Shown here: positions 6,794 to 8,443 of the stretch, one piece after another
Layout of the letters: every line of letters begins with the position of its first letter
Position numbering within the stretch: position 1 is the stretch's first letter
Virus record (IMG/VR): IMGVR_UViG_2671180680_000013
Origin: a virus
Taxonomy: Duplodnaviria > Heunggongvirae > Uroviricota > Caudoviricetes
Length of the DNA stretch: 8,443 bases
Strand: one strand, 5' to 3'
Position numbers and translations under genes: made by a program
The notes under the pieces: generated by a model
The model's database searches: none
Told to the model about the DNA's origin: nothing
What the model saw: the letters and a program-made list of their open reading frames with translations, nothing else

Positions 6794-8382
6794 ATGAGTG
6801 GTGAAAAAAAGCGAAAGGCTGGCGGTTCTATGGTCTTGTAGGTTTTGGCGCAATAGTACTGCTTTCCGCTGGTGTCTGGGCGTTGCAATATGCTGGCAGT
6901 GGGCCAGAAAAAACGTTGTCGCCGCTGGTGGTGCACAACAATCTGCAAATCGATCTCAATGAGCCGGACCTCTTTCTCGACAGCGACTCTCTGAGCCAGC
7001 TTCCCAAAGATCTCCTCACCATTCCGTTTCTCCACGATGTTCTGAGTGAAGATTTCGTTTTCTATTATCAGAATCATGCCGATCGTCTGGGCATTGAAGG
7101 CAGCATTCGTCGCATTGTCTATGAACACGATCTCACGCTGAAAGATAAACTCTTTTCGTCACTCTTAGATCAGCCCGCGCAGGCTGCGCTATGGCACGAT
7201 AAACAAGGCCATCTTTCACATTACATGGTGCTGATCCAGCGCAGTGGTTTAAGCAAACTGCTGGAGCCATTGTTGTTTGCCGCTACCAGCGACAGCCAGT
7301 TAAGCAAAACGGAAATCAGTAGCATCAAGATAAATAGTGAAACTATTCCTGTTTATCAGTTGCGCTATAACGGCAATAACGCCCTGATGTTCGCGACTTA
7401 TCAGGACAAGATGCTGGTGTTTTCCAGCACGGATATGTTGTTTAAAGATGATCAGCAGGATACCGAAGCCACGGCGATCGCAGGTGATTTGTTGAGCGGC
7501 AAAAAACGCTGGCAAGCAAGCTTTGGCCTGGAAGAGCGTGCTGCTGAAAAAACGCCAGTACGCCAGCGCATCGTGGTCAGCGCCAGGTTGCTGGGTTTTG
7601 GCTACCAGCGGTTAATGCCTTCTTTTGCTGGCGTACGCTTCGAAATGGGTAACGACGGCTGGCACAGTTTTGTGGCGTTAAATGATGAATCCGCCAGCGT
7701 AGATACCAGTTTCGATTTTACGCCGGTCTGGAACAGTATGCCTGCCGGGGCCAGCTTCTGTGTGGTGGTGCCGTATTCACACGGTATTGCCGAAGAGATG
7801 CTTTCGCACATCAGCCAGGAAAACGACAAGCTGAATGGGGCGTTAGACGGTGCCGCGGGGCTGTGCTGGTATGAAGACTCAAAATTGCAAACCCCGCTGT
7901 TTGTCGGTCAGTTTGATGGCACTGCCGAACAGGCGCAATTGCCAGGGAAACTGTTTACGCAAAATATTGGTGCGCACGAAAGCAAAGCGCCAGAAGGTGT
8001 TTTGCCGATAAGCCAGACTCAGCAGGGCGAAGCGCAAATCTGGCGTCGCGAAGTGAGTTCCCGATACGGTCAGTATCCGAAAGCGCAGGCGGCGCAACCC
8101 GATCAATTAATGTCGGATTATTTTTTCCGCGTGTCGCTGGCGATGCAAAACAAAACGCTGCTTTTCTCCCTCGATGACACGCTGGTTAATAACGCCCTGC
8201 AAACACTGAATAAAAACCGCCCGGCAATGGTGGATGTAATACCCACTGATGGCATCGTTCCGCTCTATATCAATTCACAAGGCGTGGCGAAACTGCTGCG
8301 TAACGAAACGTTGACCAGTCTGCCGAAGAATCTCGAACCGGTTTTTTATAACGCCGCACAGGTGATGCTGCCAACTTACTGA
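6794..8382 (+). CDS. yfaA: DUF2138-family exported protein (YfaA-like); reading frame interrupted at an A7 tract (6804-6810) immediately after the start codon
   Basis: ATG at 6794 with AAGGA (6781-6785) 8 nt upstream opens frame +2 (MSGEKKRKAGGSMVL, stop at 6839-6841). From 6805 frame +1 is open to TGA at 8380-8382 and begins KKAKGWRFYGLVGFGAIVLLSAGVWALQYAGSG, a classic signal-peptide or signal-anchor n/h/c pattern. There is no ATG or GTG in frame +1 before TTG at 6883 (the ORF-track start). An eighth A in the tract would join the ATG to the long ORF, giving about 529 aa. Gene name is from the recalled position downstream of gyrA. Confidence 0.6.
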
Positions 8383-8390
8383 TTTAGTGT

Positions 8391-8443
8391 ATGATGGTGT
8401 TTTTGAGGTGCTCCAGTGGCTTCTGTTTCTATCAGCTGTCCCT
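8391..8443 (+). CDS. 5' end of the next gene in the operon (YfaT-like, DUF1175?), truncated by the window
   Basis: Tandem ATG ATG at 8391-8396 lies 8 nt after the yfaA stop, with an open frame to the window end (MMVFLRCSSGFCFYQLS...). The short spacing suggests translational coupling. No clear Shine-Dalgarno; only 17 codons are visible. Confidence 0.3.
   Translation, partial: MMVFLRCSSGFCFYQLS

Follow-up and report, generated by a model that had tools for sequence, protein, structure and literature searches.

The region downstream of gyrA in the stretch of DNA analysed here (8,443 nucleotides, which as a whole we call the window) is very probably a non-functional remnant of yfaA in a dismantled Shigella sonnei operon, disabled by a frameshift and an IS1-associated deletion. 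It is a pseudogene of an already known kind, a product of IS-driven genome decay, and its open reading frame (ORF) was deposited with the genome of S. sonnei Ss046. We infer that no functional YfaA protein is made in this strain. Two lesions would account for this: loss of one G uncouples the start codon from the membrane helix of the protein, and IS1 abuts codon 523, with yfaT (the MagC counterpart) and the 5′ part of yfaS (the MagD counterpart) presumably lost as they are in Ss046. An earlier note, made from the letters of the window alone, had taken the same DNA for the entrance to a functional yfa operon; instead, yfaA is frameshifted and 3′-truncated, and it is followed by IS1, not by yfaT.

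Source and layout of the window

The window corresponds to NCBI draft contig CWUQ01000165.1 of S. sonnei assembly GCA_001258355.1, in which the gene positions are identical, and its 499-residue ORF at 6883–8382 is identical as a protein to AAZ88934.1 of S. sonnei Ss046. It is thus a whole S. sonnei draft contig with the end of an IS element on each side. Short-read assemblies break at repeats, which explains why the contig consists of unique DNA between two of them. Upstream of yfaA it carries the following features.

1–60: IS2 end, the terminal ~60 bases of IS2 at the contig start
up to 2940: 3′ part of yfaL (autotransporter gene)
between yfaL and gyrA, minus strand: ubiG
3958–6645: gyrA, directly upstream of the yfaA remnant, as in E. 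coli
6665–6682, plus strand: terminator-like hairpin after gyrA in the gyrA-yfaA spacer, a 7-pair stem (AAGGGAGCTATCTCCCTT) and then a T-rich tail

In Ss046 a full IS2 (with an IS3-family transposase) lies directly upstream and cuts off the 5′ part of yfaL, so yfaL is likewise a pseudogene remnant. No sigma-70-like promoter was found by a promoter scan of the gyrA-yfaA spacer (6600–6900), no Rfam family matched anywhere in the window, and the PADLOC defence models gave no match.

Five runs of N, 253–314 bases each (854–1109, 1887–2139, 2186–2447, 3462–3726 and 5559–5872), lie inside yfaL, ubiG and gyrA. Their lengths are inexact, since gyrA has 895 codons here as against 875, and genes called on the public contig are interrupted at these positions too, which suggests that the Ns belong to the deposited assembly. 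GyrA codons 83 (4204–4206) and 87 (4216–4218) encode S83L and D87G, where E. coli 730V1 has HPHGDSAVYD; Ss046 GyrA has S83L only. Together, S83L and D87G form the gyrA signature of the ciprofloxacin-resistant Central Asia III clone of S. sonnei, which has spread globally (PMC4970813); parC lies outside the window.

The yfaA reading frame and its family

The frame that follows gyrA belongs to the DUF2138 family, and its yfaA-derived part is as follows.

6805–8360, plus strand: yfaA-derived coding sequence, residues 5–523 of a 562-residue protein; DUF2138; no usable start

Read from 6805 to 8379, the frame gives a 525-residue DUF2138 protein that matches positions 2–526 of the 560 in Pfam profile PF09909 (E=4.3e-268; 890.9 bits against a cut-off of 22) and the NCBIfam equivalog PRK11410 (839.8 bits against a cut-off of 529). 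Its DNA is 99.7% identical to that of E. coli yfaA over 6650–8360, and the N-terminal hydrophobic segment is present (WRFYGLVGFGAIVLLSAGVWAL). It therefore passes both curated family cut-offs and occupies the same place after gyrA as E. coli YfaA, the product of the first gene of yfaA-yfaT-yfaS-yfaQ-yfaP. The family assignment of the earlier note, for which it had proposed the Pfam search, is confirmed by these results, as are the hydrophobic N-terminal segment that it had seen in this frame, the position of yfaA directly after gyrA, and the neighbourhood that it had given; the intact E. coli order is gyrA, yfaA, yfaT, the alpha-2-macroglobulin gene, yfaQ and yfaP.

Structure prediction, also proposed there, was run with AlphaFold2 on intact YfaA (pLDDT 75.9, pTM 0.70). 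A Foldseek search of this model against the PDB returned nothing at E<=0.001, with query-normalised TM-scores (TMq) below 0.2, and the YfaA sequence had no meaningful match among solved structures (best E-value 0.33). The predicted fold thus offers no functional or mechanistic lead. Our literature search for DUF2138, YfaA function or experiments on YfaA found no paper.

The strong DUF2138 match, and the fact that the operon has this form in most E. coli, would suit a reading in which yfaA is intact, stands first in a functional yfaA-yfaT-yfaS-yfaQ-yfaP operon and is translationally coupled to the next gene. We regard this as extremely unlikely, because the N-terminus has no in-frame start, because the end of the ORF and the supposed next gene are both IS1 (the 8360/8361 junction and the Ss046 locus already refute this reading), and because S. 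sonnei genomes are without yfaT and have a truncated yfaS. The window copy differs from E. coli YfaA in just these respects: it is without one G at codon 7, IS1 replaces its last 39 codons, and no yfaT stands behind it. This is a trap for annotation, since a pseudogene can keep a long open frame and score superbly against Pfam.

Frameshift at the 5′ end of yfaA

In an alignment with the corresponding locus of E. coli strain 730V1 (L001), the ancestral AAG GCG has lost one G in the window, after the sixth codon.

6794–6841, plus strand: ancestral yfaA start ATG 6794, now a 15-codon dead-end ORF with its stop TAG at 6839–6841
6805–6811, plus strand: site of the 1-bp deletion, AAAAAAAGGCG to AAAAAAAGCG, the G being lost after 6810
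6820–6897, plus strand: codons of the N-terminal transmembrane helix, residues 10–35 in the AlphaFold2 model of intact YfaA

Without this G, the ATG and the rest of yfaA are in different frames. The frame of ATG 6794 now translates to MSGEKKRKAGGSMVL*, where the intact E. coli gene gives MSGEKKAKGWRF... from this ATG. Position 6805, which had been given as the start of yfaA, is an AAA codon that comes just after an in-frame TGA (6802–6804), and the ancestral ATG lies in the other frame. The first ATG, GTG or TTG in the DUF2138 frame is TTG 6883 (codon 31). All the helix codons lie 3′ of the frameshift and this only in-frame start falls near the end of the helix, so the window holds no complete DUF2138/YfaA ORF whose start is in frame with the membrane helix. 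Re-initiation at TTG 6883 would yield a protein without the membrane helix.

The IS1 junction at the 3′ end

Similarity to yfaA ends abruptly at 8360 in comparison with 5391 E. coli genomes, and the alignment collapses beyond that point. The remainder of the window is the left end of an IS1 element, of which 83 bp lie inside the window.

8361–8443, plus strand: IS1 left end, with the terminal inverted repeat from 8361 (GGTGATGCTGCCAACTTACTGAT)
8416–8443, plus strand: first 9 codons of IS1 insA (VASVSISCP), GTG start at IS1 nucleotide 56

IS1 is a 768-bp element that carries insA and insB′ with a programmed frameshift. The window sequence has its terminal inverted repeat and, about 55 nt in, the start of insA. 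The sequence from 8361 onwards is multi-copy, with about 77,000 matches in E. coli genomes and a median of 10 in each. In Ss046 a multi-copy element of 768 bp begins at this junction; it encodes a DDE_Tnp_IS1 transposase (PF03400), and the insA reading frame runs on there. A matching element in E. coli GF31 is labelled IS1A family by PGAP.

Since yfaA homology breaks at 8360, the last residues of the ORF (VMLPTY, 8362–8379), its stop (TGA, 8380–8382) and the ATG that the earlier note had taken as the start of the next gene are all IS1 sequence, the first two being read from the terminal repeat. That 17-codon "gene", with its ATG at 8391, lies within the IS1 end, where insA itself starts at GTG 8416; short ORFs at contig ends can thus be IS ends. 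The 8-nt gap and translational coupling proposed between the two genes are accordingly false; where the E. coli cluster is intact, there is a 4-nt overlap between yfaA and yfaT.

The part of YfaA that is missing is a conserved one. In a 36-sequence family alignment the lost residues 524–562 hold seven invariant positions (L526, P528, L530, L533, L543, W554 and W559), and in the AlphaFold2 model they comprise half of the helix 516–533 and the two terminal strands. The conserved C-terminal segment of DUF2138/YfaA is therefore absent from the window copy, the profile match stopping at 526 of 560.

IS1 was found at this yfaA junction in 0 of the 5426 complete E. coli genomes, and the exact yfaA-IS1 junction had 0 matches in the GTDB species-representative genomes, a set from which other Shigella are expected to be absent. 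Cluster look-ups indicated that other truncated forms of YfaA are mostly contig-end partials. One metagenome scaffold (L013, 1–1787; protein P0002) has a yfaA-IS1 junction that is identical to the nucleotide. Its yfaA allele is plainly another one: the G is retained, leaving the 5′ end intact, and there are many differences, the nearest of them 85 nt from the junction. This could reflect either a hot spot for IS1 insertion or a junction moved by recombination. In an E. coli-type contig (L014, 5255–5538; protein P0003) yfaA breaks off 8 nt before the position of the IS1 junction (ttttttat|atgtaacttcgcg...) and runs into unrelated sequence; here the gene has been truncated independently once more, at almost this point.

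The window comes from a short-read draft with five N runs and with both ends inside repeats, and such an assembly might in principle have mis-joined yfaA to an IS1 read or acquired the frameshift from a homopolymer error. There is almost no chance that the structure is an artefact of this kind. The finished Ss046 chromosome has the identical ORF and junction, as do a 475-kb contig of another assembly and about 13 further draft contigs; the missing G and the IS1 junction are both found in Ss046 and in the 16 contigs that were read; and a closely related 501-aa S. sonnei form is present on 333 contigs. The deletion allele is, moreover, byte-identical in 319 finished E. coli genomes. Sequencing error was considered separately as the cause of the frameshift and was rejected, the same allele being present in finished genomes.

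Deletion behind IS1 in S. sonnei

The window ends 83 bp into IS1, and the deletion behind the element is known from other S. sonnei assemblies. In Ss046 (L004) IS1 spans 11479–12246. Its left flank matches the E. coli 730V1 locus (L001) up to 10712, and its right flank (GGCGCTGAGATGCGCC...) picks up again at L001 14276, within the alpha-2-macroglobulin gene (4515 nt), so that IS1 replaces 3563 bp relative to E. coli. The DNA deleted in Ss046 comprises the last 121 nt of yfaA (39 codons), all of yfaT and the first 2799 nt of yfaS (933 codons).

A simple IS1 insertion would show a flanking duplication, whereas the bases on the two sides of IS1 in Ss046, cgccgcaca and ggcgctgag, differ and form no target-site duplication. 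The missing duplication and the 3563 missing bp together indicate an IS1-associated deletion and not a plain insertion, and suggest that it arose by IS1-mediated adjacent deletion or by recombination between two IS1 copies.

In both Ss046 and contig AKNE01000052, IS1 is followed by a 568-aa bMG10 fragment, a DUF2300 gene (yfaQ) and a YfaP_C gene (yfaP). The last two, which encode the YfaQ/MagE and YfaP/MagF proteins and lie outside the window, are open, at 549 and 258 aa. The downstream check that the earlier note had proposed thus comes out against its reading in this species: yfaQ and yfaP are kept, yfaT is gone, and the C-terminal third is all that is left of yfaS. Ss046 does not have the arrangement of E. 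coli 730V1, where the DUF2138 gene is followed by a DUF1175/MagC gene and by a macroglobulin gene that is thioester-less and full-length. We infer that the strain from which the window comes shares this downstream structure. The macroglobulin is the only known partner of this protein family, and loss of its first 933 residues would mean that it is destroyed too, leaving no part of the module functional.

Among the IS elements of Shigella, IS1 is the most abundant and is a main agent of gene loss; in S. sonnei, expansion of IS1 and loss of genes through IS elements are the rule (PMC7373316). The yfa locus matters little by itself, as one more case of IS-driven gene loss in Shigella.

Relation to the Mag system

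The earlier note had described the yfa cluster as functionally uncharacterised. This is out of date, since the Mag complex of Pseudomonas aeruginosa, encoded by magABCDEF, a six-gene operon around a type II alpha-2-macroglobulin, has been studied biochemically and genetically (PMC3735191, PMC5764988, PMC12663445). MagD, the type II macroglobulin, has no thioester, yet it traps protease after cleavage of its bait, and MagA, MagB and MagF bind it with 1:1 stoichiometry (PMC3735191, PMC5764988). MagB (PA4491), the 589-aa product of the second gene (COG4685), is the sole Mag protein with a transmembrane helix (residues 26–48); its periplasmic body binds MagD, it keeps MagD at the inner membrane, and MagD depends on it for stability and cleavage (PMC3735191, PMC5764988). 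The operon confers protection against type VI effectors that target peptidoglycan (PMC12663445).

Pseudomonas homologues of DUF2138 are 44–49% identical to YfaA over >90% of its length, and P. schmalbachii has a six-gene array of YfaP_C, DUF2138, MagC (PF06672), A2M, DUF2300 and YfaP_C genes in which DUF2138 is second. P. aeruginosa MagB and YfaA are both encoded just before the MagC/DUF1175 and macroglobulin genes, are of similar size and have a single N-terminal helix. A comparison by family, COG number, size, helix and gene order argues strongly that YfaA is the counterpart of MagB. By homology with MagB, intact YfaA should anchor and stabilise the macroglobulin. The statement that all members of the cluster are exported or envelope proteins is imprecise on this point, since the DUF2138 member is a membrane anchor with a single transmembrane pass.

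The E. coli cluster has five genes and is without the leading MagA-like YfaP copy of the P. aeruginosa type of array. The type I macroglobulin (ECAM/YfhM, with PbpC) is encoded at a separate locus outside the window. It is lipid-anchored, contains a CXEQ thioester and lacks a DUF2138 partner; it too is a periplasmic macroglobulin defence module in E. coli (PMC5764988). The lesions described above would leave S. sonnei without the type II macroglobulin (Mag-like) envelope module, and this loss may bear on its envelope defence and on interbacterial competition.

The deletion allele in E. coli and possible −1 slippage

The one-G deletion also occurs in E. coli. The 71-bp stretch that carries it (window 6775–6845) is byte-identical in 319 of 5389 complete E. 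coli genomes (~6%), and the carriers include O157:H7 and unrelated-looking strains. In E. coli carriers (for example L002, 3001–3081) the frame is otherwise open, and PGAP calls a 542-aa yfaA from an ATA codon (Ile21). Apart from the deletion, the window allele is closest to a non-deleted E. coli allele (99.7% to L001), and the O157:H7 deletion sits on a different background; the deletion may thus have arisen more than once or have been carried over by recombination.

The heptamer A_AAA_AAG at 6805–6811, in the frame of the ATG, fits the slippery-site pattern X_XXY_YYZ, and a −1 slip on it would restore the wild-type N-terminus MSGEKKAKGW. This heptamer is known from dnaX to permit −1 slippage. 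Folding of 6812–6900 gave no stimulatory hairpin 3′ of the heptamer (z=+1.28; 183 of 200 shuffles fold as well). The persistence of the allele with an open frame in ~6% of E. coli suggests that the frameshift alone may not fully knock out yfaA. It is thus conceivable, though unlikely, that the deletion allele is not null and that −1 slippage gives YfaA at a reduced, frameshift-limited level in the carrier lineages. In S. sonnei the IS1 deletion makes such slippage irrelevant.

For the window itself, a partly active truncated YfaA might be proposed, either residues 1–523 plus VMLPTY made by −1 slippage or a helix-less form made from TTG 6883. The slippery heptamer lies exactly at the deletion, the frame stays open for 519 further codons, and PGAP still annotates the gene in the E. 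coli genomes that share the deletion. We find this very unlikely: the heptamer is not followed by a stable hairpin, the conserved C-terminus is missing, and the MagB homologue has no documented role beyond binding and anchoring the macroglobulin (PMC5764988), which is destroyed here. A non-functional yfaA remnant remains our reading of the region.

Other lesions were seen in the E. coli cluster. In O157:H7 PV15-279 (L002, 5351–6071) the macroglobulin gene is flagged as frameshifted. In GF31 (L011, 3977–5511) IS1 follows a 5′ fragment of the macroglobulin gene and abuts a truncated response-regulator gene beside atoS, a junction that implies a large IS1-associated deletion. This repeated degradation in E. 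coli lineages suggests that the cluster is dispensable in many niches.
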